Shown in pieces: positions 2,118-17,274 of a stretch of 17,274 nt of DNA. Both the position numbers and the translations under genes were made by a program. The notes beneath the pieces are model-generated. The model was not told where the DNA came from. It made no database searches and worked only from the letters and a program-made list of their open reading frames with translations. The DNA lies in the IMG/VR virus record IMGVR_UViG_2802429232_000009. One strand, written 5' to 3'. The DNA is from a virus. Taxonomy: Duplodnaviria > Heunggongvirae > Uroviricota > Caudoviricetes. Numbering within the stretch: the stretch's first letter is position 1; each line of letters opens with the position of its first letter.

Positions 2118-2821
2118 GGTTGCCAGCCTGTGGAGTAATCGTAGTCGAGCACCGCCTGAATATCGTCCAGTGCTTCCACCGCCGCGATATGGTGCTGAGC
2201 GTTGGCGAATAAGCGCATATCGTGATCCATTGTTACCGATTCAAACTGGGCGGCGATTTCGTTGGTTAACTCGATCAGACCGTTATTTTTAGTTTTCCAC
2301 ATTAAACCTGGTGGAATTTTTTTCTCCGCTCCCATTTTTGTGAGTGAGATCTGTTGAATTCGGCTGTTTGTATCACTGTGGAAGTGATGGTCGTTGATGA
2401 TGATGTAGTTGGTTGTGATGGTATCGCGTTGATTTTTGATTGCAGAGTATTTCGCCTCTTTAGCATCGGTTATAGATGGTTGCCATTTTTCACCATCCCA
2501 ACGTTCAAAAGAACCTGATGGGGCAATGATGGTGACAGTTTCAGGTAATTGACCCAATTCTTGAATAATAAGCTGGCTACCATCAACTTTGTTATAAACA
2601 GTTTGCCCGCGATGATCTTCAATGTGCTCCCATTTTTCATTCACCCAAACAGGAGTAAAACCTGAAACCTTTTCGGGTGGTGAATTTAATGTGCAATGAT
2701 TTGGCAAACCTGTATTAGGTGCAATGTATGCATCAGACTCACCGATATATTCTTGGGTGTCTTGTGAAAAATTATAAACAGTCAGTATTTGAGCTTCATC
2801 GGAAAATGTAAAAGTATTCAT
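2114..2821 (-). CDS. Tail fiber assembly protein / chaperone (Tfa, Mu U / P2 G family), 235 aa
   Basis: Immediately downstream of the tail fiber gene with an ATGA start/stop overlap at 2818..2821. The N-terminal region has the Tfa-type pattern ([17 protein letters not shown] ... [10 protein letters not shown] ... WDGEKWQ); the C-terminal 100 aa are divergent. GAGG Shine-Dalgarno present. Confidence 0.8.
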
Positions 2822-4443
2822 GCTAGCCTCACAATATAATTGAATGCGATATTTTTAACGGTGTTTTCGGTATTGCCGGTATTATTAATGGTTATAGAGT
2901 GATTATGGGCCCCAAGTGGAATTGAATGTGAATGGGTACCAATTGAAAGTTCATGTGTATGGCTACCCAATGCGATAGTATGTGCATGGGTACCAATGGC
3001 TGTAGTATGAGAGTGATCACCTACTGCATCGGTATTAACAAAATCATAACGAGAGTCACCGATAGAATCAGCGGTTAGTGCATTGCCACCGTAATCAGCA
3101 TCACCTTTACATGTTATTTGATGTGAATGGCCACCTGTGCTGGTCGACGATTTACTTCCGTGATTGAACGACGATGTTGTCTTAGAGCCAAGATCAGAGG
3201 CAGATACCGTTTTGTTTCCAAAATCAAAAGATGATGTTGCTTTTGTCCCTAAATCCGTACTAGAAATACTGCCCGTATGGTTGTGCGATTTAACCCCATC
3301 CAGTTCAGTAGATAATATATTACGCCCACTGCTGGTTTTCCCTTTAATTATCCATCCACGCATATCAGGGATGACGCCAGACGGATATGCAATTGCCAGT
3401 TTGGGATATGAGGCTTTATTAAATGTCTGACCTGTCATCAGGGCGTAGCCAGAAGGTACAGAATCAGACGGCCAAGGAATAGGCATCCCTACAGGGCAGC
3501 TTTCCGCAGCACTAGCCTTATCATACGCCGCCTTCACCGCACTCGGCGTAGCCGCCTCCGTCGTACTGTTGCTATCCGTCGCATTACTAAGCTTCACAAT
3601 CCCTTTTTGTGTCAGGGTGCCGTCCGGAATACCCGTAATCTGCCCCCAGGGGTGTGTATGACTACCCGCAGCCTTACCGTTCGCCAGGTCATACGCCGCC
3701 TTCACCGCGCTCGGTGTCGCCGCCTCTGTCGTGCTGGTGCTATTGGTCGCATTATTAAGCTTCACAATCCCTTTTTGCGTCAGCGTACCATCCGGTATAT
3801 CAGTAATCTGACTCCAGGTATGACGATGATTTCGAGCCTCAATCATTGCCGCTTTCACCGCTTTTGGCGTAGCCGCTTTGGTTTCGTCATCACTGTCAGT
3901 GGCGTTACTTAACTGCGTAAAGCCTTTTTGCGATAACGTAGCATCAGGGTGATTAGTCGAACGTTCATGTTCATCCAGTTGCGAATCAACATAATCCCGT
4001 GTTGCCAGCACAATACTGGGATCAACGGTGAGCGTTACCGCTGCCGTATTGGAAACTTCCATAATGAGACGAATGCAAACTTGCTTACCGCTGCCGCCGG
4101 GTAATAGCGGTTTATACGACTCCGGGAATTTACCGATAGCAATGAGTTCACCATCGGTATCAAAAACACCGACTTCACGTACATACCAGCCGCCGATATT
4201 TTCTGGCAGTACAAGTTCCGCAATTAACCAGTTAGGATTATTAGGCGCAACTGTTAATGTATTTAAATCACCGCGCCATACTTCATGGCGTAATTTAGTT
4301 TGGCTGACGGTGGGTTCATAATATTGCCCTCCGCTGTCGCCAACAGCCATTTTTTGTAGATGAAGCTGTTTTTTATCCGCCAGGGCATTGGCAATTTTTG
4401 CCATCCCTCTGTCAGTGAGTAGAGTATAAAACTCATTATCCAT
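2818..4443 (-). CDS. Tail fiber protein (541 aa): P2 gpH / Mu S-like N-terminus, tandem repeats, His-x-His-rich C-terminal tip
   Basis: The N-terminal block ([21 protein letters not shown] ... [29 protein letters not shown] ... ATPKAVKAA) is the conserved tail-fiber N-terminal domain of P2/Mu/lambda-type fibers. Three copies of the TLTQKG-x-VKLSNAT...[13 protein letters not shown] repeat follow. The C-terminus has six HxH motifs (HSH, HSH, HAH, HTH, HSH, HNH). GGAG Shine-Dalgarno; ATG at 4443. Confidence 0.9.
3514..3945 (-). repeat. In-frame tandem direct repeats of about 168 bp (56 codons) inside the tail fiber gene; two well-conserved copies plus one degenerate copy
   Basis: The 20-mer tcatacgccgccttcaccgc occurs at 3521 and again at 3690 (period about 168 bp), with long near-identical tracts between them. 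The third, degenerate copy is around 3846..3945. Confidence 0.8.
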
Positions 4444-4445
4444 AA

Positions 4446-5078
4446 TTACTCCGGGTAAATATATGTAATTTCAAGGCTCCATTGCCCTGCTCCGTAATAG
4501 ATTGATGTGTTTTGCTGTACTTCCCGTATCTGGAAAGGTAAAACCGTCGTCAGTTCACCACCATAAAGCGCACAGCCAATAACAGGAATAGCACTTTGGT
4601 TAATGATCCAGACGATTAATGCTTCCAGTTTTGAACGTGTATTTTTATATTCATGAATGAGTTCTACCAGATTATTGAAAAGGTTTTCATCCATGCCTTT
4701 ATCCACCAGCTCTATATCAACCTTAAAAAAATAAGCCTTTCCCTCATATTCAAACCATTCTGAAATAGTTCCTGGTAGAGAAAGTATTTCCAGTACCCGC
4801 CGTACCGCCCAAATCGTTCCTTTATATTTATGCAGCTCAATGGCTTGCTTAATTAACTCTCGCTTCTCCCGTTCATCAGTGGTAAATAACCAACCTTCCA
4901 GCCCCTGAACGTGAAATTGTTCTGCAAGGGCAGGTAATGCCGAAGCATCAACTAGGTCTACCAGATAAACCATCAACGCCGTCAGATCGAGTTGGGCAAA
5001 ACGCTCGGCGGCGATATTTGCCAGAGTTGAAAAACGCTCATCGCTGGCAAGCGGCGGTGGCGGCAGCAATTTATCCAT
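4446..5078 (-). CDS. Baseplate/tail protein, P2 gpI / Mu gp48-like (about 210 aa)
   Basis: Position between the gpJ-like and tail fiber genes. I prefer the ATG at 5078..5076 (GGAG Shine-Dalgarno 9 nt upstream; overlaps the TAA of the upstream gene) over the TTG at 5093 used in the ORF track. Confidence 0.75.
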
Positions 5079-6186
5079 CGCTGACTCCGGCAATCGTGAC
5101 GTCTATCGCGGTGCATTCCGCCCACTCATGCGCCTGCAAAATACGTTTTGTGGGCATGTTCAGCACAACGTCATAGACGCCATCGACCTGCAATACTTTG
5201 ATTATCTGGTTTGGCACAATGTCCTGTCCCAGATGTGTCTGCCGCTGTTGCGTCCAGAGGCTAATCGCTTTACGCGCCGCAGCCAGCGTTGTCTCCTGAT
5301 CGGCAGTGGTAAACAGTGTGAGCTGCGCACGGATCTCATACGGCACCCTAACGGCGCATTTCGCACTTACTTTGTCGGTCAGCGGACGTTTTTTCTCCTT
5401 ACTAACCTCCAGTTCAATTTGCGCGAGCAGTTCCACGCCCGGCAGACCATTCAGCGTTAGCGGGTAGATCTCCACGCAGCCTTCTGGTAATCCTTCGTCC
5501 GGCCCCAGGACCGCAACGTCAATAATCGACTGGCTTACGGAAAGCGTATGAAAGCGGTAGGCACCATAGCTACCCGCATTACTGAAACTTTCCGGCGCCA
5601 GTTGGATCCGTTGGCGCAGTGCGTCATCACTCTCTTCACCGCAGCCGCCCGTTGAAGCAGTCAGGTTGGTTACGTTGATATCGTAATAACCAATCCTGTC
5701 AACAAGGGCGCTAATTTGTGCAGGCTGCCAGCCATTGCCCGCTTCGCCTGTTGTCAGACTGGTGGCGGGAACGGCGATATGCAAACTTCCCGCCGGAATC
5801 AGAACATCTTCATCGGTAGCAAACATCACGCTGTCAGAGGCGCTGGCTCGTGTTCCTTGGGGGATCAGGATGTTGCTTGTATACGCATTGACTACCGAAA
5901 ACTGCAACGTCGTTTTTGCTGGCTGCGCAGGTAAGCGGTGAACGCCCACCAGTTCCCCTAAATAATCCAGCATTGGCGCGCGGGAATACGCGACCAGGTT
6001 CTGTTTCGCCGCTTCCTGAATGGCGATGCGTACAAGGTTTTCACGATAGGCAAAAAGGTCAATCAGCAACCGCTCGGCCTGTGCCGGGTAGAGCTTTTTG
6101 CCGCTGGCATCTTCGTACTGCGCAATCATCTCGCTGGTAATTTGCGCAGGATCGCGGTCAATAAAATTGGGTTCGGCTATCGCCAT
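5071..6186 (-). CDS. Baseplate wedge protein, P2 gpJ / Mu gp47-like (371 aa)
   Basis: Size and synteny (gpW-like, gpJ-like, gpI-like, fiber). GGAGGTG Shine-Dalgarno; 10-nt overlap with the upstream gpW-like gene. Confidence 0.85.
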   Translation of the reverse strand: MAIAEPNFIDRDPAQITSEMIAQYEDASGKKLYPAQAERLLIDLFAYRENLVRIAIQEAAKQNLVAYSRAPMLDYLGELVGVHRLPAQPAKTTLQFSVVNAYTSNILIPQGTRASASDSVMFATDEDVLIPAGSLHIAVPATSLTTGEAGNGWQPAQISALVDRIGYYDINVTNLTASTGGCGEESDDALRQRIQLAPESFSNAGSYGAYRFHTLSVSQSIIDVAVLGPDEGLPEGCVEIYPLTLNGLPGVELLAQIELEVSKEKKRPLTDKVSAKCAVRVPYEIRAQLTLFTTADQETTLAAARKAISLWTQQRQTHLGQDIVPNQIIKVLQVDGVYDVVLNMPTKRILQAHEWAECTAIDVTIAGVSDG

Positions 6187-6536
6187 AACACCTCCGTTGA
6201 GTTGATTACGCCGTCAGCGGTGCGCCATTGCACACGTAACGTCAGATGTTCCCCGTCGATTACCGGTGTCACCTTCAGCAACCGGCAGCGCGCTTCCCAC
6301 TGGCGAATGGCCTCTACCGACTCCCGTACCACATGCGGGATCGCCCGCTCGATGGGATAATCGATGTAGTGCCACAAGTTGCTACCAAACAGCGGTCTGT
6401 GGGGATCACTGCCGCGCGGTGTGCGCAGAATGATGTGTATTGCCTGGTGAATATCATCCAGTCCGCAGACGTATTCTTCAGGCCGCTGCAAGGCGGGTTG
6501 CCAGTGCAGCGTAGAGGGGCGTGTTTTCGTGTTCAT
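6177..6536 (-). CDS. Baseplate protein, P2 gpW / T4 gp25 / Mu gp46-like (119 aa)
   Basis: Motif LDDIHQAIHIILRTPRGSDPHRPLFGSNLWHYIDYP matches the conserved gpW/gp25 core. Weak Shine-Dalgarno. Preceded by a 98-bp gap containing a terminator. Confidence 0.8.
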   Translation of the reverse strand: MNTKTRPSTLHWQPALQRPEEYVCGLDDIHQAIHIILRTPRGSDPHRPLFGSNLWHYIDYPIERAIPHVVRESVEAIRQWEARCRLLKVTPVIDGEHLTLRVQWRTADGVINSTEVLWR

Positions 6537-6597
6537 GAGGGCATTTTCGCCCTGAACAGGCGGAGGAGATATTAAAGCGGTTTAGAAAACTGGTTGA

Positions 6598-6629
6598 TTA
6601 AAAAGAGAAAACCCGCCATCAGGCGGGTT
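6598..6629 (-). terminator. Intrinsic (rho-independent) terminator for leftward transcription, inside the tail operon
   Basis: Perfect 8-bp GC-rich stem (6610..6617 pairs with 6622..6629) and 4-nt loop, followed on the minus-strand RNA by UUCUCUUUUU. Starts 6 nt after the spike gene stop (6635). Not a terminator on the plus strand. Confidence 0.65.
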
Positions 6630-6634
6630 AAAAG

Positions 6635-7336
6635 TCAGTGTGAATGGTGGTTGGAGTTGCCACCGCTGTCCTGCAATGTGCCGCTGGCCTGCACGTTACC
6701 AATCACGTTGACATTGCCGGTTATCGTGGCGGCATTACCGATGCCTCCACTTCCTGCCATGCCACCCAGCCAGGTCAGTTTTTTCATCACCGTTACGTTG
6801 CCGGTAAAGGTACTGAGCGGTGCGTCTACCGTTACAGTCATCGCTTTAACATCCACCTTACTGGCTTCAATGCTGACATCGGTGGCTTTCACATCAACAG
6901 TGTCGGAAGTCACGGTGACGTGTTGGGCTTTAACCTCAACGTTGGGCGATGTCAGGCGGGTACGGTCGATAACCTCAATCACGATTTTTTCAATGCCGCC
7001 ATTAATCGTAAGCTGGTGGGTGCTGCGGTCATATTCAAACGCTGCGCCATCGGAAAACTGGACATACCTTTTATCGCGCGATGCTACTGGCGCGGTATCT
7101 ACCGTTGAATATACTGCGCCCAGCACTACTCCATCTTCACCGTTATCATCCAGCAGAACTTCCACCTGCTCTCCCATATCCGGTAGCCAGTAGTCTTTAT
7201 TGTCCTGAGAATTGCGCTGCAGCACCGCAAGCCAGTTACTCTTCAGATTGTCACACTCTGGTAGCGTGACCCGCACCCGAACGCTGGTTTCGTCAATATC
7301 ACTGATAATCCCCGTTTGCCGGGTTACTCCTTTCAT
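6635..7336 (-). CDS. Baseplate central spike, P2 gpV / Mu gp45-like (233 aa)
   Basis: Strong AAGGAGG Shine-Dalgarno. N-terminal OB-fold-like region and repetitive beta-rich C-terminal half (VTV/VDV repeats) ending in a His cluster (NSNHHSH). Position after the gpD-like gene. Confidence 0.8.
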   Translation of the reverse strand: MKGVTRQTGIISDIDETSVRVRVTLPECDNLKSNWLAVLQRNSQDNKDYWLPDMGEQVEVLLDDNGEDGVVLGAVYSTVDTAPVASRDKRYVQFSDGAAFEYDRSTHQLTINGGIEKIVIEVIDRTRLTSPNVEVKAQHVTVTSDTVDVKATDVSIEASKVDVKAMTVTVDAPLSTFTGNVTVMKKLTWLGGMAGSGGIGNAATITGNVNVIGNVQASGTLQDSGGNSNHHSH

Positions 7337-7345
7337 ATTGCCTCC

Positions 7346-8386
7346 TTACTGGCTGGTCGCTGGCCCGCGTGAAACGTCGATCTCAGTGGTATAGCCGCTG
7401 CGCACAAAACTGTGAGTAGATTTATCAATCAGCCACTGACCGGAAAGCACACCAAAATCGGTTAGCTCGATTTTATTGCCTGCCGTCAGTTCCGGGCAGC
7501 CCATCATCCTGAGCGTTCCGGTTTGTTGGTATTCGTTGTGGCTGTCGAGCGCGGCGTTGGCCTTTGCTTGTGCCGCGCCAACGTCCGGCGCCCGACTGTT
7601 CAGTTTTAGCGTGTCGGCACTGGTGCCGACTCCACGGGCAGACGGCTTTTGCTGGCTGTCGTGAGTGTAGATAACCAGTTCTTTTTTCTTACTATTTTGA
7701 TGCTGTACGGTGGCGTTTTTGTAGATACGGTTAATGGTATCTTTGAAGGTGAAATGCGAAACGTCTTTGCGGTCGATCTTTTTCACCGGCGCCAGGCAGC
7801 GCAGCGTGGGTAAATGCGAAAAAATCAGCTCTTTGGTGGTCACCTTTAGCGCATAGCCATATTCGCTGGCCAGGCGCTTGATAAATCCAACATCGGTTTC
7901 GCCGTACTGTGTTACCCGGTCAATTGTCAGAGGCTCGATTTTGCCCACCAGCGTCAGGCCGTGAGTTTGCGCGATACGGCTGGCGATGGCTGAAAGCGTT
8001 GTCTCTTCAAAGCCCTGACTATTACGGGTGCGCAGCGCCTGATTGACGGAAGTGGCGATGCCATCAATATTTACCGTGGAAGGTGGTGCTGAAATATCAA
8101 TTTTATCAATGATATATTGACCACAATCGAGCAGTTTTTCCCCCTGATAACCCATGTGCAGCGCCAGCGTATCGCCTTTGCCGGGATACCACTCTTTTAT
8201 CCAGCGTCCATCGGTGTCATCCAGTGTAATCGCGATGGTATCCGACTCGTTTTTAATACTGTCGTGATAACTGATACTGGTGACATAGGGCGTGATGTCA
8301 TAAGTGATATCTTTATGCCCATACCAGAGGGTAAAAATGGGCGCGAGCGTGGCAAAGACGCCGCCAGTTACGCTTATCTCAGCCAT
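7346..8386 (-). CDS. Tail/baseplate hub protein, P2 gpD / Mu P (gp44)-like (346 aa)
   Basis: Size and synteny (gpU-like, gpX-like, gpD-like, gpV-like). GGAG Shine-Dalgarno; start overlaps the end of the gpX-like gene by 13 nt. Confidence 0.8.
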   Translation of the reverse strand: MAEISVTGGVFATLAPIFTLWYGHKDITYDITPYVTSISYHDSIKNESDTIAITLDDTDGRWIKEWYPGKGDTLALHMGYQGEKLLDCGQYIIDKIDISAPPSTVNIDGIATSVNQALRTRNSQGFEETTLSAIASRIAQTHGLTLVGKIEPLTIDRVTQYGETDVGFIKRLASEYGYALKVTTKELIFSHLPTLRCLAPVKKIDRKDVSHFTFKDTINRIYKNATVQHQNSKKKELVIYTHDSQQKPSARGVGTSADTLKLNSRAPDVGAAQAKANAALDSHNEYQQTGTLRMMGCPELTAGNKIELTDFGVLSGQWLIDKSTHSFVRSGYTTEIDVSRGPATSQ

Positions 8387-8583
8387 GGTGGGATCTCCGA
8401 TACGGTTTTGTTGACGGAAATGACTGGAATAATGAGCTGAATACCGGAAGGCAGTACCGGATAAATGGCGACATGTGGATTGGCGGCGATAATGCGTTCG
8501 TAAGCCAGTGCATCACCGTAGTAATGCCATGCCAGATTATCCCAGCGTTCGCCGTCGGTGGTGATATGTTCAAGGTATCGCAT
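8374..8583 (-). CDS. Small tail protein, P2 gpX-like (LysM-like fold), 69 aa
   Basis: GAGGAG Shine-Dalgarno. TAATG stop/start overlap with the upstream gene at 8583..8585. Motif YGD..AYERIIAANPHVAIYPVLPSGIQLIIP resembles tail protein X. Sits between the gpU-like and gpD-like genes as in R-type tailocin loci. Confidence 0.65.
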   Translation of the reverse strand: MRYLEHITTDGERWDNLAWHYYGDALAYERIIAANPHVAIYPVLPSGIQLIIPVISVNKTVSEIPPWLR

Positions 8584-9536
8584 TACCAGCTCCTCGTAAT
8601 GGTCGCGGCAGCAAGCCGAGTCACTGCGGGAATGGTTTGCTGTACCGTTGTACGTGCCTGCTCAACCAACGTTGTGGCTTTATCGAAAGTTGCTTCGGCG
8701 ATGTCGCTGGTAATGTCGTCAAAAAGCGCCTGTGCATGGTCAACCAGTGTCCCGGCGTCTTCGGCACAGTCGCGGATGCCCGGCATGTTACCTAGCAATG
8801 CTTTAATCTGCGCCGACAACGCTTTTGGTAATCCTGCCAGCGTTTGCAGATCCATCGGCTGTTTAAACAGGGTTTCGATGGCATCGATAGTCTTTTTCAA
8901 CGACGTAATTATCTTTTCACACTTTTCTTTTAACGCTTTGGCCTCTTTAATCAGTGCTTTGATCTTTGCCACTGTTTTTTTAATATCTTCAATGGATTGC
9001 GCCAGTTCATCGAGCATCTCTTTGGCTTTGCGCATACCTTCTTCAATGGTGTTCAATATCTGATCCAACCAAGACTCCACCTTGTCCGGAAAATCGCTCG
9101 CCTTTTCGTCAATATTAGGCTCCTGGGTGGTAATCGCCGGGGGCAGGAGTGGGTTTTTCGGATCGCCGGTATACTCCTGGAGCGACATTGTTCCGCTTTG
9201 GGCAATGATATTGCCCCAGGGATCGGTGTGCTGGTGAGTGGCGGTTAACTCTGTAATTACAAACCAGCCGCGATAATCACCGTTGCCAAACACCAGCGCC
9301 ATTGCTTTGTGGGCGAGCATGGCTTCACGCAGTCGATTCAGCTCTGTTGTGGGTTGGCAAAACTGGCTGTGCAGGGAAAATTCCAGCGCCAGCATGTCCA
9401 GCTTATCGCCAATAAACTGCACGCCAGGTTTGCCTTCAATACGGGCATGTGTGGCGTAATCCACGCCCATTGTGCTTTTAAAGCCATCCCAGAATGTGAC
9501 AACTTTAAATTCAATCTCACCTAAAACGGCATACAT
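8583..9536 (-). CDS. Tail protein at the Mu N position with a gpU-like N-terminal domain and a long K/E-rich coiled-coil C-terminal extension (317 aa)
   Basis: ATGA overlap with the tape measure stop at 9536..9538. The first 110 aa or so (EGKPGVQFIGDKLDMLALEFSL ... GNGDYRGWFVITEL) resemble the P2 gpU tail-terminator family; the remainder is predicted alpha-helical. Confidence 0.65.
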   Translation of the reverse strand: MYAVLGEIEFKVVTFWDGFKSTMGVDYATHARIEGKPGVQFIGDKLDMLALEFSLHSQFCQPTTELNRLREAMLAHKAMALVFGNGDYRGWFVITELTATHQHTDPWGNIIAQSGTMSLQEYTGDPKNPLLPPAITTQEPNIDEKASDFPDKVESWLDQILNTIEEGMRKAKEMLDELAQSIEDIKKTVAKIKALIKEAKALKEKCEKIITSLKKTIDAIETLFKQPMDLQTLAGLPKALSAQIKALLGNMPGIRDCAEDAGTLVDHAQALFDDITSDIAEATFDKATTLVEQARTTVQQTIPAVTRLAAATITRSW

Positions 9537-11905
9537 CAGGCATACCCCCGGCGCTGTTGCTGCGCCATTACGTCGTTAATCATTCTTTCCAGTTCGCGTT
9601 TACTCATCGTCAACACGTTCTGAATGTCTTTAGTGGTGTTTTGTCCGTTACTCTGCACGGTAATTTGTGGCGAAAAATTCACCTGGACTTTTCCCAGGGA
9701 ACGGGAGGGTAGCGTCGCCGGTTTGGTTACGGATTTACCAGGTAAAGAGGCCGACGCGGGTTTTGCCGCTGGCGCCGATGACGGCGTAGCCGTTTTGCTG
9801 GATGGCGCGAGTTGTTTGCCCACAGGCGGCGTTAAAAGCGCACCGGCAACGCCTGGAACAACGGTCGCGGGGGAGACTGATGCGGTATTAGTCGTGCCTG
9901 TAACAGCCGCAGCCGATGCTTCTGTGCTGATCCCCATTGTGGCTTTTAGCCAGTCTGGCATGGCGTTTTTGACCTGATCAATAATGCTTTTCAGAGCGGG
10001 GAAAGCATTCATTATGCCGTCGGCCAGACTACCCAGTATATTGCTGCCGAACTCGCTAAAACTCGCAGGCATCTCAACACCAAACCAATTCATCACATCG
10101 GAAAAGGCGCTGTAAAACAGCCCCAGTGGCGACCAGTCGAGAATCAACCGGCTAATACCAGCAATGCCGCCATCAAAGGCCGTGGTGATACGTTGCCAGA
10201 TGGCGGAAAATAACCTGGATATAGGTGCCCAGTTGCGATAAATCAGATAAGCCGCGCCCGCAATCGCAGTGATGACCAGACCAATGGGATTCATCAGTAG
10301 CACCCGACCTAGCGAGAGAACGGTTCGACCAACCAGTTTCAATGCTCCGATCAGGCCACGACCAAGCAGTTGCGTTAGCCATTTTGCGCCGCCACCCAAT
10401 GACTTAACCGCCGATAGCACCTTACTTGCCGTGCCTCCGAGCGCCAGACTTGCCCTCACTTTCAGGAAGATATCGACCAGACGAATAAACGGCGAGGCGA
10501 TGAAGTTCGCGCCCAGCTTTAAAACATTCAGCGCACCGTTAAACAGCCAAATCGCCCCGACGATTTTCGCAATGTTTTGCACCAGCGCCGGATGTTCGCG
10601 TAGCCAGGCGCTGAACTGGCGAATAACCGGCGCAAGGCTTTGCGCCAGCTCGCCAATCGCCGGCATAAGTTGTAAGCCAATGCTGAGCCATAAATCATTT
10701 AACGCCAGTTGTAACGCTTTAGTCTGTTCAATGGGCGAGGCCATTTGCGCAGAAAAGTCAGCGTTAATCAGATTCTTGCTGGTGGCTTGCATGGCAGAGG
10801 CTTTTAGCTGGCGATATTCCTCCATATTCGCCAACATAGGAGCCAGAAATTCCACCGTTTGCGCATCGCCGAACATTTCGCCCAGATTAAATTGCGTCAC
10901 CATCGATTGCAGCGCAGTGCTGCGGGCAGATAAATCTTCAATCTGCATGGTGCGTTTGAAGGTATCGAGGATCGCCGGATTCATCTTCTCAAGCTGCATT
11001 TGCACGATATGAGTCATAGCTTCGCTAACACCCATACCGTTTTGCTGATGCTCAAGCAGAGAACCTTGCAGATCGACCCCCTGGCTGGCGAACCAGCTAT
11101 CGGTTTTTTTCGAAAAGGTGGTTTGCAGAAAATGAGCGAAATTTTCCGTCGCCGCACTGGCGCTGGCACCGTTTTTCATGGCGATCTGCATGGTGGCGGC
11201 CAGTTCAGCCATACCTTCCAGACCCTGAGCGCCGGTTTTACCTGCAAATTTCTCTATCCACTGCGTTTGTTCGGTAATGGCAGGCCCACCGCTTTTGGTA
11301 ACGCTGTACATCATGTTTTGCGCAGCGTGGAAATTTTCTGGGGCAATATTCAGTCGATCATGAGTCGCGAGCGCGGCTTTCGCCCATGTTTCGGCGCTGT
11401 CGCGCGTGGCGGTGGCGGCTTTGGCGATCTCCGGCATATAGCGGTTGAGATCCTGCAAGGACGATATGTTGCCTTCAACTAAGGTCAGAGCGGCGGACTG
11501 TAACGTGGTCTGCTGCTGGTTAAAATCCATACTCCAGTCGCGCAGATTAAGGCTGAGCGTCTCGCGGGTGGCATCACTCATCCCGCCTTTGGTCGCCATA
11601 TTGACCATATTGACCATATTGTCCTGAAACTCATACGGCAACTTCCAGTCGGGGGCTTCAACATTAAATACTTTGCTAAATTGCCCGGCAAATGTTTGGG
11701 TTTTCTCCATCAGATTAGCGCGGCTGCGGCTATTTTCCTCCAGGCGGAGAGCGGAATTGGCAAGCCGCTGCGTTAGTTTGATAACTGTCGCTTGCTGAGT
11801 AGAGAGAGTTAACAATGTTCTGGCGTTGAGTGAGCCGTAACGGGCTATTGCCTGCGTCAACGTCTCATTACGCGCCTGAAGCTGGGTAATAATATCGTTG
11901 GCCAA
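9536..11905 (-). CDS. Tail tape measure protein (789 aa)
   Basis: Largest ORF, directly after the chaperone gene. Long helical N-terminal part, a central hydrophobic glycine-rich segment, and a Pro/Ala/Ser/Thr-rich tract near the C-terminus. The only available start is TTG at 11905 (in-frame TAA 15 nt upstream; AAAGAG Shine-Dalgarno-like motif). Confidence 0.85.
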   Translation of the reverse strand: MANDIITQLQARNETLTQAIARYGSLNARTLLTLSTQQATVIKLTQRLANSALRLEENSRSRANLMEKTQTFAGQFSKVFNVEAPDWKLPYEFQDNMVNMVNMATKGGMSDATRETLSLNLRDWSMDFNQQQTTLQSAALTLVEGNISSLQDLNRYMPEIAKAATATRDSAETWAKAALATHDRLNIAPENFHAAQNMMYSVTKSGGPAITEQTQWIEKFAGKTGAQGLEGMAELAATMQIAMKNGASASAATENFAHFLQTTFSKKTDSWFASQGVDLQGSLLEHQQNGMGVSEAMTHIVQMQLEKMNPAILDTFKRTMQIEDLSARSTALQSMVTQFNLGEMFGDAQTVEFLAPMLANMEEYRQLKASAMQATSKNLINADFSAQMASPIEQTKALQLALNDLWLSIGLQLMPAIGELAQSLAPVIRQFSAWLREHPALVQNIAKIVGAIWLFNGALNVLKLGANFIASPFIRLVDIFLKVRASLALGGTASKVLSAVKSLGGGAKWLTQLLGRGLIGALKLVGRTVLSLGRVLLMNPIGLVITAIAGAAYLIYRNWAPISRLFSAIWQRITTAFDGGIAGISRLILDWSPLGLFYSAFSDVMNWFGVEMPASFSEFGSNILGSLADGIMNAFPALKSIIDQVKNAMPDWLKATMGISTEASAAAVTGTTNTASVSPATVVPGVAGALLTPPVGKQLAPSSKTATPSSAPAAKPASASLPGKSVTKPATLPSRSLGKVQVNFSPQITVQSNGQNTTKDIQNVLTMSKRELERMINDVMAQQQRRGYA
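11596..11621 (-). repeat. Short in-frame tandem repeat (9-bp unit ccatattga, about 2.9 copies) inside the tape measure gene
   Basis: Read directly: gccatattgaccatattgaccatattgtcc. It encodes the duplicated tripeptide in DNMVNMVNMA. Confidence 0.7.
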
Positions 11906-12094
11906 AATTGTTTCTCTTTAAATATTGATAATGGCCCGCTGGTTATTTTTCTAAAAAAAGGGGCAGGGAAGAAATAAACCTGACGGGCTTGGGAAACTCG
12001 CAGACATCAGGTCTGCGAGCCATATTCGATTTTTATTTGGGCGTTGGCTTCATCCAGCCAGTTGCTAAAGTCATCGACGGTAAGGGCGTCTATC

Positions 12095-12412
12095 TCACTG
12101 GGCGGAAAGCGAAACCATCTCGCCAGTAGCGCCATTGCCTGCCATAGCAGGGGAGGATTCTGTAACCACGCTAAGCATAGATTGAAATCGTTTCTGCAAT
12201 GCCTGGTAATCCAGCAAATCCATTTCAGCTAAATCTTCTGGCACCAGTCCGGTCATTGCAGCCATTAGCGGTTCATCCCACTCTTCTGGTTTTTCGCTGA
12301 TCCGGCGGGCGTTGCGCATATCTTTTACTTTCAGGCGACGTAATTGCAGAGTGTTAATTACGTCTCCCGCCGCTGAAGTAAACGGGAACTGTAAGATATA
12401 ATGTTCTTTCAT
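12095..12412 (-). CDS. Tail assembly chaperone (P2 gpE / Mu gp41 / lambda gpG-equivalent position), 105 aa
   Basis: Small acidic ORF between the tube and tape measure genes. AAGGA Shine-Dalgarno. An overlapping alternative-frame ORF extends 3-prime of it (see findings). Confidence 0.7.
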   Translation of the reverse strand: MKEHYILQFPFTSAAGDVINTLQLRRLKVKDMRNARRISEKPEEWDEPLMAAMTGLVPEDLAEMDLLDYQALQKRFQSMLSVVTESSPAMAGNGATGEMVSLSAQ

Positions 12413-12439
12413 TTTGTATCCTTATTTATCATGCGGAAA

Positions 12440-12457
12440 TCGGGGCCGTAGCCCCGA
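12440..12457 (-). terminator. Hairpin between the tube and chaperone genes; possible attenuator or mRNA-stabilising stem-loop
   Basis: 7-bp perfect stem (TCGGGGC/GCCCCGA) with 4-nt loop in the 50-bp gap downstream of the tube stop. Followed on the minus-strand RNA by UUUCC only, so at most a weak terminator. Confidence 0.35.
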
Positions 12458-12462
12458 ATAAC

Positions 12463-12987
12463 TTAGCCACCGATGTTATTGCGATAGGTACTTAATTGAT
12501 CCACGCCGTTAACGCGGAAAATATTCGCCAGGTAATCCAGCTCCAGCAGTGTTTCACCATCGACCACCTGTTTAATATAGGTACAACCAAAGGCGCTGCT
12601 GAATTCCGGGTTTTCATTTTGTTTAAATGTTCCCAGTGGATTCTTTTTAAACATAACAGTCAAATGAGTGACTAACGCTAATTGATTCGCTTTCCCCTGG
12701 GAGTTATAGCAATCAATACTGGAGCGGCACTGTAATGCTACCGCCTGCCACGGGTTTGCCGTTTTACGCATGACGTCCTGATAAAAGGAGTTCCATTTAA
12801 TTTCCCCTTCCAGTTTATCGAAACCTGCCGGGAGCTCGATTTTACCGACCATGCCCAGTGCTTTATGCTCCTGCATAATTAAACTGACATCCGGTAATTT
12901 AATTTCGGTTGCACGACCTAACAGGTTATTACCATCGAGATAAATATTGGCATTGGTAATACGGTTAATTTGAATTTTTCCAGCCAT
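12463..12987 (-). CDS. Tail tube protein (P2 FII / Mu M-like), 174 aa
   Basis: Directly follows the sheath gene with a TAATG stop/start overlap at 12985..12989. GGAGAG Shine-Dalgarno. Size and position typical of contractile-tail tube proteins. Confidence 0.85.
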   Translation of the reverse strand: MAGKIQINRITNANIYLDGNNLLGRATEIKLPDVSLIMQEHKALGMVGKIELPAGFDKLEGEIKWNSFYQDVMRKTANPWQAVALQCRSSIDCYNSQGKANQLALVTHLTVMFKKNPLGTFKQNENPEFSSAFGCTYIKQVVDGETLLELDYLANIFRVNGVDQLSTYRNNIGG

Positions 12988-14411
12988 TAGCTATTGCTCT
13001 CCAGAGAGACTAAATATTCAGAAGTAATTTCAGTTTCAAACGTCAGACGTTCCAGCGGCGGTGGCGGGGTGAATTTATAGCTCAGCAATAAATGCCCGGC
13101 GCTGAGTTCGGTCGGTGAATTTCGCGCCGGATCGTACCAGCACTCAAAGCCAAGCAGTGCGCCGTCGGCAATCAGCTTACGGCCCCAGGTATTTACCGAC
13201 TCGGTCAGGGCATCAATTAGCGCCTGATTAATCGGCATATCGATATACTGCTGGCTGAAATAGCGGATCGACTCGTTAATCACATCGCCCGTGCGGCGAA
13301 CGTTTTCAAAGTTACGCATATGGGTCACGGTAGGCCATGCCGCAGTGCGGTTGCCCCATAAACGCAGACCAGAGCCGTAACTATTGAAAACTGTGGTAAT
13401 GCCGTTTTCGTTGAGCTGATTCACTTCACTTTGCGGGTCATCAACCATTGCGGAAAGTGAACGTTCGATACCGATAATGCCCTGAATTTCCTGGTTTGAG
13501 TTACTCCACCAGAAACCTTTCTCCAGGTCTACTTTGGCACGCAGTCCGGCAGCGCGTGAAGAGAGCGGTTCGAGAACTTCCTGGTTGGTTGAGCCGTCAT
13601 AAACTTTGACGTGCGGATAGCATAAACGCGCACGGTCAGAACTGGTGTTGAAGTTGATTGCGCCTTTCGAGCCGCGACCAGCCAGCACCTGCTGGAATGT
13701 AGTACCGATTGGGGCGTCAATGTAGGCGATAGCACCGAGTTTGTCCGCCTGAGCAATCAGCTCTGTGGTGACCGATTTTTGCGTACAGAAAACCGGAGCA
13801 AGCAGGATTTTGGCGTAGAAACCATACAGATTATAGGTGTCCTGTAGCAGTTTCATCCCCGTGCGATCGCCTGCGGTATTAACGGCGCCAATAATATCGG
13901 CTGCGGTAACTTTTGTTGGATCGGCCCATGAGTAATAGGCGCAAACTTTCGCTCCGGCAGGGATCTCAGTTTCTGCACGAGTGATTATTCCTGTTTGTTC
14001 ATCAACATGAAACGCTGTGCTGCTATACGTGGTGGCTGATGTTGAAGAGGGTTTCAGGACAACATTACGCACCGCACTATGAGCCAGTTTCGCCTGGTTG
14101 TTGGAATCAAAAGTGATACTCTCATTGCTGATGCTGGAGCCATGTTTTACCGGGTCCAGTACGTTAATCACCACCACCGTACCAGCGCCGTGGTCGTAAA
14201 TCGCCTTCAGCGCCTGCGGGATCGTAAAGTTAGCCTGAGTCGAGCCAAACTGCGCGGCATCGCTTTCAGAAAGGCACAATGTTGGTTTGTTTACCGGACC
14301 GCATGGTGCACTACCGATTAAAGCGATTACAGCGGATTTTACCGCTTTAACCGGGCGCGGACCGGTTTCAATTTCAATGGTTTCGACACCGTGCAGGTAA
14401 TTAGCTGCCAT
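12987..14411 (-). CDS. Tail sheath protein (Mu L / P2 FI-like), about 474 aa
   Basis: Large ORF immediately upstream of the tube gene. I prefer the ATG at 14411..14409 (GGAGAGG Shine-Dalgarno 8 nt upstream; overlaps the TAA of the preceding ORF) over the TTG at 14417 in the ORF track. Confidence 0.9.
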   Translation of the reverse strand: MAANYLHGVETIEIETGPRPVKAVKSAVIALIGSAPCGPVNKPTLCLSESDAAQFGSTQANFTIPQALKAIYDHGAGTVVVINVLDPVKHGSSISNESITFDSNNQAKLAHSAVRNVVLKPSSTSATTYSSTAFHVDEQTGIITRAETEIPAGAKVCAYYSWADPTKVTAADIIGAVNTAGDRTGMKLLQDTYNLYGFYAKILLAPVFCTQKSVTTELIAQADKLGAIAYIDAPIGTTFQQVLAGRGSKGAINFNTSSDRARLCYPHVKVYDGSTNQEVLEPLSSRAAGLRAKVDLEKGFWWSNSNQEIQGIIGIERSLSAMVDDPQSEVNQLNENGITTVFNSYGSGLRLWGNRTAAWPTVTHMRNFENVRRTGDVINESIRYFSQQYIDMPINQALIDALTESVNTWGRKLIADGALLGFECWYDPARNSPTELSAGHLLLSYKFTPPPPLERLTFETEITSEYLVSLESNS

Positions 14412-14598
14412 GTACAATTTCCTCTCCGGTATTTTGTTCTTCCTGAGTGATGACGGGAGTCAGATGATTGCGGGCAATCATGGTCATGACCCACTCGTTG
14501 TCTTCTGGCAGATCAATTTCACTGTTCGGCCACAATAAGATTTCTTGTCCGTCGGCAAGGGTGACGCCGCTTGCCGGGCCGTTGTAGATATATTTCAT
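14401..14598 (-). CDS. Small phage protein (65 aa), Mu gp38-like position; probable tail completion / neck-proximal protein
   Basis: ATGA overlap with the upstream ORF at 14595..14598. GAGGAA Shine-Dalgarno. Acidic. Position directly before the sheath gene. Confidence 0.55.
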   Translation of the reverse strand: MKYIYNGPASGVTLADGQEILLWPNSEIDLPEDNEWVMTMIARNHLTPVITQEEQNTGEEIVHGS

Positions 14599-15050
14599 TC
14601 AGTTTCCTCGTAATTAACTTCAGTAAGCAGGGTAAGGTCCGCGCTTTCCCGTTTCGCGATAAACAGCGAGCTGGTCGCCATTTCCAGGATGTAGCGGCAG
14701 AAACCACCGCTCTCGCCTGCATTGATTTCTTTTTCAAGCCAAAGAAGACGCTCGCAATCAGGAAGCTGGATCCCTCCCAGTGCGCTGCGTATGCGATCCA
14801 GTGCGTTTAACGCGTCACAATTTTTGCCAACAATAACGGTGGCAGTTAAGCGGAGCGTTTGCTGTTGCACGAGAGCATCACTGCTTTCAGGCATGGCAAA
14901 TAGAGAACCGCTATAATTAATAATTACTGTAACTTGCTGTGTCTGTGGAATATATTTCTGGGCATCGACCGATGAAATAAATACGTCCATTTCGGGATTC
15001 TGTTCACGTAATCTGGTCACAACAGAATTCATTACAGATAAAATTTCCAT
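14595..15050 (-). CDS. Phage protein (151 aa), Mu gp37-like; probable tail completion / sheath-initiator protein
   Basis: AAGGA Shine-Dalgarno. Position between the lysis cassette and the sheath gene, where Mu-like phages encode tail-completion proteins. Family assignment from memory only. Confidence 0.55.
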   Translation of the reverse strand: MEILSVMNSVVTRLREQNPEMDVFISSVDAQKYIPQTQQVTVIINYSGSLFAMPESSDALVQQQTLRLTATVIVGKNCDALNALDRIRSALGGIQLPDCERLLWLEKEINAGESGGFCRYILEMATSSLFIAKRESADLTLLTEVNYEETE

Positions 15051-15167
15051 ATAGGGTGTTCCTTAATTATTGCTGATTCGTTAACGCTTACTCCGTTATC
15101 GTTGAAATGTATTCTGACGTAGTGAAGGTGAAGGATCTTTTAATCTGCTTTAGAGAAAAAATTGAAT

Positions 15168-15482
15168 TTAATAGCTGCCACGTTGTAATAGCTCTATTTT
15201 GCTATATAAGGCATCCAGCTTTGCTTCTAATACTGCCTGGCCACGAAGATAATCTTCTCTGCGGACATAATGCAGCGGAAGCTCGGCACGAAATTCGAGA
15301 AATTCTCTTTCCAGTTTCGACCAATTTGTTTCTGATTCCCGGCGTGCGTTTTCCAGAGATTCAAAACGCTCATTAAGTCTTTTTTCAATTTGTGCTAACA
15401 GCAATTTTCCGGCAGCAAACATTAATCCAACGAAGGAAAGCATAAGGGAGATCACTTCCCAAAAATCGATACTGAGTTTCAT
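15168..15482 (-). CDS. Lysis accessory membrane protein (104 aa): N-terminal TM helix plus coiled coil; i-spanin-like or Mu gp25 (releasin)-like
   Basis: GAGGAG Shine-Dalgarno 5 nt upstream. One hydrophobic segment (VISLMLSFVGLMFAAGKLLLA) followed by a charged helical region. Located directly after the lytic transglycosylase gene. Confidence 0.55.
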   Translation of the reverse strand: MKLSIDFWEVISLMLSFVGLMFAAGKLLLAQIEKRLNERFESLENARRESETNWSKLEREFLEFRAELPLHYVRREDYLRGQAVLEAKLDALYSKIELLQRGSY

Positions 15483-15494
15483 CGGCTCCTCTGT

Positions 15495-16103
15495 TTAGTG
15501 AAGACAGCTTGCCTGTCCCCAGAGTAAGTAGCGGGCGGCATGTTGATAGAGGATCATCTTCGGGTAGTGACGATTTTCTCGCCAGTTCGCGGCGCTACGC
15601 CCGGCGTTGACGTGTTCAACATGACCAAACCAGATAGTGGCATCTAACCCTTTGGATGCGGCCAGTTTTTTATCCCGGTTAACCCATCCCTGACCGCCGT
15701 TATAGGCGCTTAGGGTAAATGCCATACGCTGACAGTCATTTTTCGCAGAGATGTTTTTCCACAAATGCTGGTCATATTGCACCAGCGCGCGAATCGCCCA
15801 GGTTGGGTTATAGGGCTTATTTTCACGTAGCTGTGGATACAACTGGCTTATCCATGTCGCTGTGGCAGGCATAAATTGCGCCATACCTTGTGCGCCGACG
15901 GGGGAACGCGCCATTGGCTGCCAGGCGGATTCCTGGTGTAACTGCCCGGCGAAGTCCGCCACCGGGGCGTTCAGCCCCCAGACTTCTCGTGCAGTTCGAA
16001 TCAGTTCGTTTCGCCATGCCAGAGATGCTCGCGGCGGTTCAGATGCGTTAAGCGGGAAGAACGCGAACAGAGTAATTAGCGCGAGAAATTTTACCTGCAT
16101 CAT
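15495..16103 (-). CDS. Lytic transglycosylase (SLT domain) endolysin with an N-terminal signal peptide or SAR-type sequence, about 202 aa
   Basis: Catalytic-site region LHQESAWQP ... AQGMAQFMPATA is the family-1 lytic transglycosylase signature. I place the start at the ATG at 16103..16101 (MMQVKFLALITLFAFFPLNA-SEPP), which overlaps the TAA of the upstream gene (TAATG). The longer 16199 start in the ORF track would overlap the upstream gene by 97 nt. Confidence 0.85.
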   Translation of the reverse strand: MMQVKFLALITLFAFFPLNASEPPRASLAWRNELIRTAREVWGLNAPVADFAGQLHQESAWQPMARSPVGAQGMAQFMPATATWISQLYPQLRENKPYNPTWAIRALVQYDQHLWKNISAKNDCQRMAFTLSAYNGGQGWVNRDKKLAASKGLDATIWFGHVEHVNAGRSAANWRENRHYPKMILYQHAARYLLWGQASCLH

Positions 16104-16390
16104 TAAAGTCCTAACGCGACGGAAAGGCAGACGGCTGCAACGATGATAGCCCGACGAATCATTGCCGCCGCGCAGCATCGCGCCTCTTCCCAAGGGCAAA
16201 ATGAGTCAGGCCGCGCCCAGGGAAACAGACTGCGATCGAGCCAGTATCCCAGCACAGCGGAGAGCGAAACCAGGCTTAGTTTATAAATGACTACCGGGAT
16301 CTGTGCGGAAGATGTCCAGCCGATCACGACAAACAGCGCGACGGAAGCGACCAGCCAGCCGGAAAGCCGGGGAAAAGTGACTTTTTTCAT
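16103..16390 (-). CDS. Small membrane protein with 3 predicted TM segments (95 aa); holin/antiholin candidate, first gene of the leftward operon
   Basis: Strong AGGAG Shine-Dalgarno 8 nt upstream of the ATG at 16390. Three hydrophobic stretches. Translationally coupled to the endolysin gene. Holin identity is positional inference only. Confidence 0.55.
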   Translation of the reverse strand: MKKVTFPRLSGWLVASVALFVVIGWTSSAQIPVVIYKLSLVSLSAVLGYWLDRSLFPWARPDSFCPWEEARCCAAAMIRRAIIVAAVCLSVALGL

Positions 16391-16926
16391 ACGATATCTC
16401 CTGATAAGTGAGCGTTTAGTGTCGCCAGATCCCTCCAGTGAAGAATGAAAAAAGCTTTAATAAATAACTTTAAAAAATAGATCCTCTATAAATGAACATG
16501 CTCGCTAATAAATCCACCCATTAATAAAAGAGCAAAAGGTGACCTGGCGAATAAGCGCGTCATTATGCAGGGAAAAGAGGATGGTGGATCGTAGGAGTAG
16601 TCAGTAGTTATTTGATTTTTAAAGTTTGTTTAAGAAAGTTAGCGACTGTGAGGGAAACGATCTTTTTATACTACAGGTAAAATAATACTGTATGTGTATA
16701 CAGTATCGTGTAAAATGATACTCCAGTTGACAAGAAACGTAACGCAAACAATATATTTATTTTGTGAATTTATGGTGTTCATTAATATTAAAAATTTATA
16801 TTTTTGGTGATTGTTTATTTGTTTGTTGAATGTATTGAGTAGCAGTAATGACAACTGCTTAGCGTATATCCGTGGTTTTACACGCATCGGGTCTTATACA
16901 GGATGCAAGATATATGGAGATGAAAA
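16391..16926. promoter_or_regulatory. Divergent AT-rich control region between the lysis/tail operon (leftward) and the Mor-family activator gene (rightward)
   Basis: 536 bp with no ORF of convincing coding character on either strand. Contains the LexA box below, a TAAAAT -10-like hexamer at 16711..16716, a TTGACA at 16727..16732, and three TAATAAA heptamers at about 16459..16528. Confidence 0.6.
16686..16705. promoter_or_regulatory. LexA (SOS) box: TACTGTATGTGTATACAGTA
   Basis: Perfect CTGT-N8-ACAG palindrome with the conserved flanking TA dinucleotides. Differs from the enterobacterial consensus TACTGTATATATATACAGTA only at two central spacer positions. A -10-like TAAAAT lies 5 bp to its right, so the box overlaps the -35/spacer of a candidate rightward promoter. 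Confidence 0.6.
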
Positions 16927-17274
16927 ATGATACGAAAATCAAAAGAGATGGCCCGGACACCGGAGATCATTAACGACCTGGCGTTTCATGCATCGCAAGT
17001 TCTGATTGAGAGCATCAATCTCGACAGCTCATCGGCGGAAAATGTGGGCTTTGCCATTGCTGACCGAATGATGCGTAACTGGGGGGGGCAAAGCATTTAT
17101 TTCCCGAAAGGGATCTCTGGACGGGCGTCGGAGCGTGACTACCAAATCTATAGCGAGTGCGATGGTCGCAACTACGCCGAATTAGCGAAGAAATATAATC
17201 TGACGCTGCAATGGATTTATAAGATAGTGAAACGCGTACATGCGGAAAAGCAACAGCGCCGTAGTAATTCGTAA
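16927..17274 (+). CDS. Mor/C-family phage transcriptional activator (115 aa)
   Basis: C-terminal region GGQSIYFPKGISGRASERDYQIYSECDGRNYAELAKKYNLTLQWIYKIVKRV aligns by eye with the DNA-binding C-terminal domain of Mu Mor (GGGQVYIPRG ... DFNGRNVSELTTRYGVTFNTVYKAIRRM). GGAG Shine-Dalgarno 7 nt upstream; stop TAA at 17272..17274, the window edge. Confidence 0.85.
   Translation: MIRKSKEMARTPEIINDLAFHASQVLIESINLDSSSAENVGFAIADRMMRNWGGQSIYFPKGISGRASERDYQIYSECDGRNYAELAKKYNLTLQWIYKIVKRVHAEKQQRRSNS

Follow-up and report, generated by a model that had tools for sequence, protein, structure and literature searches.

A spanin-less lysis cassette of BcepMu type in a tailocin-like island of Escherichia coli and other Enterobacteriaceae

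The DNA analysed here, called the window below, is the whole 17,274-nt stretch of the viral record IMGVR_UViG_2802429232_000009 (Caudoviricetes). Three co-directional open reading frames (ORFs) on its minus strand, spanning 16390..15168, encode a holin-family membrane protein, an SLT-family lytic transglycosylase (SLT) and a 104-aa gp25-like protein. Comparison of gene orders leads us to conclude that this trio is a BcepMu-type lysis cassette from which the Rz/Rz1 spanin pair and gp26 have been deleted, with a 12-nt junction and a 117-nt spacer in their places. Several genera of Enterobacteriaceae share this spanin-less form. Lysis of Gram-negative hosts is considered to require spanins as its third step. 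The cassette itself is a variant of the known BcepMu/carotovoricin-type lysis module that has lost the spanins. The features concerned are the following.

16103..16390, minus strand: Holin_2-3 family membrane protein, 95 aa, BcepMu gp21 type (PF13272, 95.3 bits, cut-off 27; phrog_1528 'holin', E 2.7e-36)
15495..16103, minus strand: SLT lytic transglycosylase endolysin, 202 aa, BcepMu gp22 type (PF01464, 56.5 bits, cut-off 21.3; phrog_669 'endolysin', E 3.4e-63)
16103..16044, minus strand: predicted Sec signal peptide of the SLT, residues 1-20, predicted cleavage after LNA
15483..15494, minus strand: SLT/gp25-like junction ACAGAGGAGCCG, 12 nt, with a Shine-Dalgarno sequence; relatives have ~520-900 bp of Rz with embedded Rz1 here
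15168..15482, minus strand: gp25-like protein, 104 aa (phrog_462, E 3.4e-34), positional equivalent of the Mu releasin gp25
15051..15167, minus strand: spacer of 117 nt; relatives have gp26 here, and phages the whole head module too, while Gp37 follows directly in the window

An earlier reading, made from the sequence only, had placed three ORFs here and called them a lysis cassette. The coordinates, which we re-derived, agree with it, and the family matches (Holin_2-3, SLT, phrog_462) bear out the assignment.

Gene orders in relatives and the missing spanins

The relatives surveyed were 80 genome loci with homologues of the 104-aa protein, plus the Pectobacterium, Yersinia and Salmonella context, the neighbouring genes being mapped by tblastn. 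Three gene orders were found among about 90 loci.

State 1, BcepMu-like phages and prophages (>60 loci, Beta- and Gammaproteobacteria): holin, SLT, an interval of 520-1050 bp (with Rz-like sequence in most loci), gp25-like, gp26, TerS
State 2, Pectobacterium, Samsonia and Lonsdalea, headless: holin, SLT, Rz, gp25-like, gp26, Gp37, sheath
State 3, the window, Phytobacter, Superficieibacter (two species), Dryocola and Lelliottia, with an identical order in E. coli: holin, SLT, 16-28 bp, gp25-like, Gp37, sheath

The gap between the SLT and gp25-like genes measures 16-28 bp in the window and in loci L013-L017, against 519-1050 bp in the phages and in the Pectobacterium tailocin cluster. The loci of Burkholderia phage BcepMu, Klebsiella phage KP12 and the Pseudomonas phages B3 and JBD67 all read holin, SLT, Rz with embedded Rz1, gp25-like, Mu gp26-like, TerS. 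The holin, SLT and gp25-like genes of BcepMu (gp21, gp22 and gp25, with gp23/gp24 as Rz/Rz1), B3 and KP12 are homologous to those of the window and stand in the same order, their gp25-like proteins being 46-50% identical to that of the window; all three phages carry Rz/Rz1 between SLT and gp25, and gp26 after it, whereas the window has neither. The gene that comes next after gp25-like also differs: a gp26-like gene and TerS are found in the phages (with the head genes in BcepMu, B3 and KP12), a gp26-like gene and then Gp37 in Pectobacterium, and Gp37 with the tail module in the window.

The Pectobacterium cluster (e.g. L007) resembles the window in being headless, in its holin, SLT, gp25-like (65% identical to that of the window), Gp37, 65-aa protein, sheath and tube genes, and in a similar promoter-like element upstream of Gp37. 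Unlike the window, it still has Rz (224 aa), within which a lipoprotein Rz1 is embedded, as well as a gp26-like gene of 103 aa, and its flank yielded no Mor gene. This State 2 cluster is very probably the carotovoricin cluster, since a carotovoricin-like R-tailocin cluster is reported to be the only one in Pectobacterium (PMC11974492). The most economical history would start from a headless ancestor with Rz/Rz1 and gp26 in place, both of which the Enterobacteriaceae lineage then lost; the Enterobacteriaceae island is then best explained as a sister to the Pectobacterium tailocin cluster.

Among the complete E. coli genomes that carry the cassette, 196 of 197 match at least 80% of a 1.7-kb cassette query, which argues against a spanin insert of ~600 bp in this species. 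Over the cassette region, a contig of Salmonella Infantis is likewise collinear with the window and has no insert.

Spanin genes were also sought directly. A permissive lipobox pattern was run over every ORF of 20 aa or more that begins at an ATG, GTG or TTG in any of the six frames of the whole window, and no credible lipoprotein ORF was found; the same scan detects the proline-rich embedded Rz1 in 6 of 6 control loci (BcepMu, KP12, B3, Pectobacterium, Yersinia and Salmonella). The claim of the sequence-only reading that the 104-aa gene and the gap after it hold no lipoprotein (outer-membrane spanin, o-spanin) ORF is thereby extended to the entire window. When a basic N-region was required, no conserved lipoprotein ORF was detected in E. 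coli locus L001 (whole island) and L013-L017. Four Rz queries gave no tblastn match in the window, and no disruptin-like cationic ORF in an alternative frame was conserved across genera. Three candidates were discarded on the way: a 33-aa GTG ORF at 16960..16859, dismissed as an o-spanin (antisense to the Mor start, no basic N-region, a mature part of 13 residues), and the cationic ORFs 15202..15324 and 15227..15388, which are not conserved beyond the closest E. coli relative.

The three proteins of the cassette

The 95-aa protein has hydrophobic segments at residues 8-29, 31-48 and 72-95 according to hydropathy, as expected from the three transmembrane segments earlier ascribed to it. Together with the domain match, the small size and the endolysin neighbour, these segments fit a Holin_2-3 protein, and holin activity is predicted.

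The ATG of the SLT gene overlaps the stop codon of the holin gene (TAATG). The frame extends to a TTG at 16199 in the ORF listing, but the ATG at 16103 is preferred, because E. coli RefSeq calls and gene calls on contigs with an identical protein agree on it. The catalytic Glu-Ser motif lies within HQESAW, of which QES is invariant in the homologue alignment. In this alignment no C-terminal extension of the SLT specific to the spanin-less clade was found. The N-terminus reads MMQVKFLALITLFAFFPLNA/SEPP, where the slash marks the predicted cleavage. Its hydrophobic region, FLALITLFAFFPL, is by inspection rich in Phe, Leu and Ile and ~13 residues long, and is followed by a helix-breaking Pro and LNA/SE. 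All SLT relatives have a short hydrophobic N-terminus that ends in an AxA-type site (LNA/SE, ANA/AE, VNA/AQ, VCA/DT, VHA/DD, AKA/DE and others), and across the family this site directly precedes a conserved mature start, ..(E/Q)xP(R/A)A... On account of its composition, its length, the Pro and the family-wide AxA-type site, the N-terminus looks like a cleavable Sec signal peptide and not like a signal-anchor-release (SAR) domain. SAR domains have been described as Gly/Ala-rich (PMC9239132), and a SAR endolysin was ruled out by inspection, the short Phe/Leu/Ile-rich region and the AxA-type site standing against a Gly/Ala/Ser-rich SAR helix. An exported SLT endolysin had been proposed before, with either a Sec signal or a SAR domain at its N-terminus: export agrees with the SLT domain and the N-terminal signal, and only the Sec half of the alternative is retained.

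Two further observations concern this family. A Cys in DCQRMA and another in the C-terminal ASC of the SLT are invariant across all aligned phage and tailocin homologues; they could form a structural or an activity-regulating periplasmic disulphide, and a part in restraining the SLT would be speculation. The SLT homologue of JBD67 (L006) starts with MKRLLTLGLLGLLSAC, a genuine lipobox, so that some members of the family may be lipoproteins rather than cleaved soluble enzymes.

The gene of the 104-aa protein begins 12 nt past the end of the SLT gene and has GAGGAG as its ribosome-binding site. The protein matched no family of Pfam or NCBIfam. A tblastn search of phage genomes yielded clear homologues in BcepMu gp25 (46% identity), phiE255 gp54, KP12_277, B3 ORF28 and JBD67, and the family shares the invariant motif LPLxYVRREDYxRGQxxxEAKLDA. 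As the earlier reading had it, a single N-terminal membrane helix is present; helical sequence follows, with no Cys, no lipobox and no C-terminal membrane helix. The AlphaFold2 model (pLDDT 81) shows helices 7-67 and 75-101, with a loop at the invariant LPLxYVRRED motif; compared with viral structures it gave no match (best E 4.4), the fold being too simple to inform. Among 30 homologues, the N-terminal flank holds 0.33 K/R against 2.8 in the first 15 residues past the helix, and Lys26 is nearly invariant. By the positive-inside rule, the protein is predicted to be N-out/C-in with a cytoplasmic helical hairpin. The 'lipoprotein' label that phrog_462 and RefSeq give to this family seems to come from a lipobox-like LTFLGAC within the membrane helix of B3 ORF28 (L005:2501-2890); it is probably an annotation artefact, and the window protein has no cysteine.

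The sequence-only reading had suggested a releasin of Mu gp25 type, and position and architecture speak for it. Mu gp25 is a 99-aa N-out/C-in protein with a cytoplasmic domain, a member of DUF2730, and the releasin required for release of the Mu SAR endolysin (Chamblee et al., PMC9239132). The late order of Mu is lys(22), 23/23.1 (spanins), 24, 25, 26, 27(TerS), and the gp25-like family holds the position of Mu gp25, because its members in relatives stand directly before a gp26-like gene and TerS, as in Mu. Both are encoded downstream of the endolysin in a late region of transposable-phage type; in the window, the 104-aa gene is immediately downstream of the SLT, that is within five genes of the endolysin. 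Mu gp25 and the gp25-like protein are also alike in size (~100 aa), in a short periplasmic N-terminus and one helix, in a basic cytoplasmic face and in a cytoplasmic helical domain of ~75 aa; in the window protein this architecture, with a basic pair at the cytoplasmic interface, is a prediction. The two systems differ in the partner endolysin, which is of SAR type in Mu and by appearance signal-peptide-cleaved in the window, and in the holin-family gene, present in the window cassette and missing from Mu.

Membership in DUF2730, in contrast, was not borne out. At E values up to 10, PF10805 (DUF2730) did not match the window protein, BcepMu gp25, KP12_277, B3 ORF28 or JBD67 gp23, while the Mu gp25 control scored 50.4 bits. 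A diverse alignment of 135 DUF2730 proteins was built from an exhaustive search with a hidden Markov model (HMM); against it, hhalign gave a probability of 3.4% and P 0.013 over 61 collinear columns, and against Mu gp25 alone or its close family the result was non-significant. The HMM of the gp25-like family scored 17.5 and 11.6 bits against two Pfam-confirmed DUF2730 proteins, collinear from the N-terminus, with a background of at most 10.2 bits in 4050 composition-preserving shuffles and 5.7 bits in reversed sequences. This is a hint, not proof, that the two families are distantly related. The 104-aa protein can be called releasin-like by position and architecture, its membership in DUF2730 being unproven. 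The site of action of a releasin is the inner membrane and its target the endolysin, so that such a role would in any case leave the outer-membrane step unexplained, contrary to what the earlier reading implied.

The island around the cassette

The trio stands at the head of a tail-only cluster, beside a divergent Mor-family activator gene. The neighbouring features are listed below.

1662..15050, minus strand: tail-only structural module (Pfam matches and RefSeq annotation of a 93%-identical E. coli island)
16927..17274, plus strand: Mor/C-family transcription activator, divergent from the lysis genes (Pfam Mor, 129.3 bits; phrog_532 'late transcriptional activator')
16455..16477, minus strand: TAAAG-N7-TTAAAG, read from the sequence as a candidate promoter element dependent on the activator, at ~65 nt upstream from the ATG of the holin
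~15135-15158, minus strand: second promoter-like copy, within the 117-nt spacer, upstream of Gp37

The tail module comprises Gp37, the 65-aa protein, sheath, tube, assembly chaperone, tape measure, gpU-like, X, D, V, W, J and I genes, the tail fibre and the fibre-assembly proteins (fibre chaperones). According to Pfam and to the RefSeq annotation of the E. coli island, the tail cluster of the window has no head, replication or integrase genes; in the 93%-identical island itself, none were found for head, packaging, replication or integrase. That island sits between lysC and yjbD/rluF. In contigs 100% identical to the window, some of them from human gut metagenomes, the cassette adjoins lysC and pgi. 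It occurs in 197 of 5426 complete E. coli genomes (~3.6%), always on the chromosome and at a fixed site. A contractile-tail gene set, a lysis cassette, a regulator, no head, replication or integrase genes and a fixed chromosomal site are thus all found, as in R-type tailocins. From the tail-only gene content and the chromosomal site we conclude that the cassette is the lysis module of an R-type tailocin-like island, and not of a phage, on an Escherichia-type chromosome next to lysC. A literature search for this E. coli/Enterobacteriaceae island, or for particle production by it, found nothing specific, and a review of kosakonicin does not describe lysis genes.

The divergent Mor/lysis layout is repeated in E. 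coli L001 and L013-L016, and in these loci the element upstream of the holin is conserved as well. Both the holin ATG and the Gp37 ATG are preceded, ~60-75 nt upstream, by an element in common, TAAAG-N7-(A/T)TTAAA(A)G, which is kept across genera; a promoter-like element was also seen in L007 and L024. In L013-L015, a hairpin and a T-run stand between the gp25-like gene and the second copy. This arrangement suggests two promoters dependent on the Mor-family activator, for which the element is a candidate binding site, and a lysis trio that would form its own transcription unit, comparable to Plys in Mu.

Selection on the remaining genes was estimated as pairwise Nei-Gojobori dN/dS (the ratio of nonsynonymous to synonymous divergence) between the window and the other State 3 loci. 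The ratios were 0.04-0.07 for the holin, 0.05-0.15 for the SLT, 0.04-0.085 for the gp25-like gene and 0.13-0.22 for Gp37, with dS between genera at or past saturation. In the window as in five other genera, the ORFs that remain are all intact. These values point to strong purifying selection on the three lysis genes, and the remnant looks functional. That the gp25-like gene outlived deletions on both sides argues that its product works with the holin and the endolysin, and not with the packaging genes.

Some observations concern other parts of the island. Relative to E. coli A10, the gp25-like (15168-15482) and 65-aa (14401-14598) genes show a synonymous divergence of 0.06-0.08, and the holin and SLT (15495-16390) and Gp37 (14595-15050) genes one of 0.24-0.39; this unevenness indicates a recombination mosaic inside the island. 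Positions 1-1152 of the window (minus strand) encode a 383-aa group 1 (GT4) glycosyltransferase, which also matches 'GT4 in conflict systems' more weakly, and the A10 island has a slipin-family protein and a nucleotidyltransferase in its place. The cargo at the fibre-distal end is therefore variable. Two unannotated records, OR845313.1 (Escherichia phage ECO95 1-6-1, 3576 bp) and OR851449.1 (Salmonella phage S.Kent 1-2-1, 1846 bp), are fragments 80% DNA-identical to the gp25-like/SLT region, and the 104-aa protein is 89% identical to its ECO95 counterpart. They are not phage genomes, but may be DNA from induced lysates.

Release across the outer membrane

The explanation that we favour, and that we regard as probable on the whole while leaving real room for doubt, is that the trio is the lysis module of a tail cluster of BcepMu-like myophage kind, domesticated and without a head, which has lost its spanins, retains a gp25-like accessory protein and relies on passive failure of the outer membrane. 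The Mor-family activator would switch on the promoter upstream of the holin and the second one upstream of Gp37. The SLT would be exported by Sec and its signal peptide cleaved, and the Holin_2-3 protein would trigger through collapse of the membrane potential, unleashing the periplasmic enzyme. The 104-aa protein, anchored in the inner membrane and with a cytoplasmic helical domain, would be an accessory or a regulator of the endolysin or the holin, in the manner of Mu gp25, and not a spanin. With no dedicated disruptor, the outer membrane would fail passively under turgor and shear after loss of the wall. This is possibly tolerable for an altruistic tailocin producer, which needs no precisely timed burst. 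That the tailocin lineage dispenses with a dedicated outer-membrane step is the best-supported reading, because no SLT extension, cationic ORF or lipoprotein ORF was found, because spanin-less phages exist, and because spanin-defective lambda still lyses under the shear of an aerated culture (bioRxiv 10.1101/515445).

Several points weigh against this explanation. Passive failure of the outer membrane is an argument from absence, and the Pectobacterium sister lineage has kept Rz/Rz1, which implies that spanins are useful for tailocin release. Particle production and lysis by the island are predicted from its genes, the 'holin' name of the 95-aa protein comes from family membership, and the signal peptide of the SLT was called by inspection. 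The gp25-like family has no Pfam match to DUF2730, and its hhalign comparison with the diverse DUF2730 profile is non-significant (probability 3%). Finally, a soluble, cleaved periplasmic transglycosylase needs to be restrained before triggering, and the sequence offers no explanation for this restraint.

Other explanations were weighed against the same evidence. The module may contain an outer-membrane disruptor that is not recognised as such, most plausibly the gp25-like or the Holin_2-3 protein, or else a structural tail protein, which would amount to a new spanin-independent route. The spanins have long been lost, consistently across genera, while strong purifying selection still acts on the trio, and the gp25-like gene, which survived the deletions around it, has the lowest dN/dS of the genes compared; moreover, ~15% of the phages whose hosts are Gram-negative have no recognisable spanins, and one of them uses a disruptin (bioRxiv 10.1101/515445). 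Such phages, and phiKT with its disruptin gp28, are like the window in that no two-component or unimolecular spanin can be recognised. Unlike theirs, the absence of spanins in the window is a demonstrable secondary loss, and unlike in phiKT no gene for a small cationic amphipathic peptide is conserved in or near the cassette. A hidden disruptor is made unlikely by the equal conservation of the gp25-like protein in spanin-bearing phages and its predicted exposure to the cytoplasm, as well as by the negative searches for an SLT extension peculiar to the spanin-less clade, a cross-genus cationic ORF or a lipoprotein ORF. We think it equally unlikely that the island is a decaying prophage remnant, in which spanin loss is mere erosion and the cassette no longer supports productive release. 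The head, packaging, gp26 and spanin genes are all missing, and the literature search turned up no particle production, as decay would have it; but all remaining ORFs are intact in the window and the five other genera, dN/dS stays at 0.04-0.22 at saturated synonymous sites, the island occupies a fixed chromosomal site in 197 complete E. coli genomes, and the sister cluster of Pectobacterium is probably carotovoricin, a particle producer (PMC11974492).

The 104-aa protein might itself be a spanin, and the earlier reading had left room for a unimolecular spanin or for an inner-membrane spanin (i-spanin) with a partner at another locus. There is a superficial likeness to Rz in that a membrane helix stands at the N-terminus and long helices come after it. 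Both forms were rejected: in more than 60 loci a separate Rz/Rz1 directly precedes the homologous gene, the positive-inside rule puts the helical domain in the cytoplasm (N-out/C-in, where an i-spanin is N-in/C-out), and there is no partner ORF; as to a unimolecular spanin of T1 gp11 type, no ORF combines an N-terminal lipobox with a C-terminal membrane helix, and the 104-aa protein has no lipobox and its only helix at the N-terminus. We give the spanin identity almost no credence. Another possibility is that lambdoid or P2-like prophages, resident in the same cell and induced by that same stress, provide spanins in trans. Prophages with Rz/Rz1 are present in most E. coli genomes, and heterologous lysis systems are complemented by lambda Rz/Rz1. 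Such a supply would not be co-regulated with the Mor-family activator, and prophage sets vary by strain and genus while the spanin-less form is constant, which makes supply in trans quite improbable.

We hold to passive failure of the outer membrane in a spanin-less tailocin lineage as the preferred explanation. A stronger version, which we consider doubtful, is that the trio forms a complete spanin-independent release system and that the gp25-like family is a second, sequence-distinct class of releasin type, essential for release. If this were true, the trio would be a natural minimal system for breaching the Gram-negative envelope without a dedicated outer-membrane protein.

The island, apparently undescribed and present in about 3.6% of complete E. 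coli genomes, provides a natural comparison: the same cassette has spanins in BcepMu-like phages and the Pectobacterium tailocin, and none in an E. coli/Enterobacteriaceae island that is conserved and under selection. Two questions become testable in this way. One is the role of the widespread and uncharacterised gp25-like protein, for which survival of the deletions on either side points to lysis and not to packaging; the other is whether the release of tail particles from a sacrificial cell needs disruption of the outer membrane at all.

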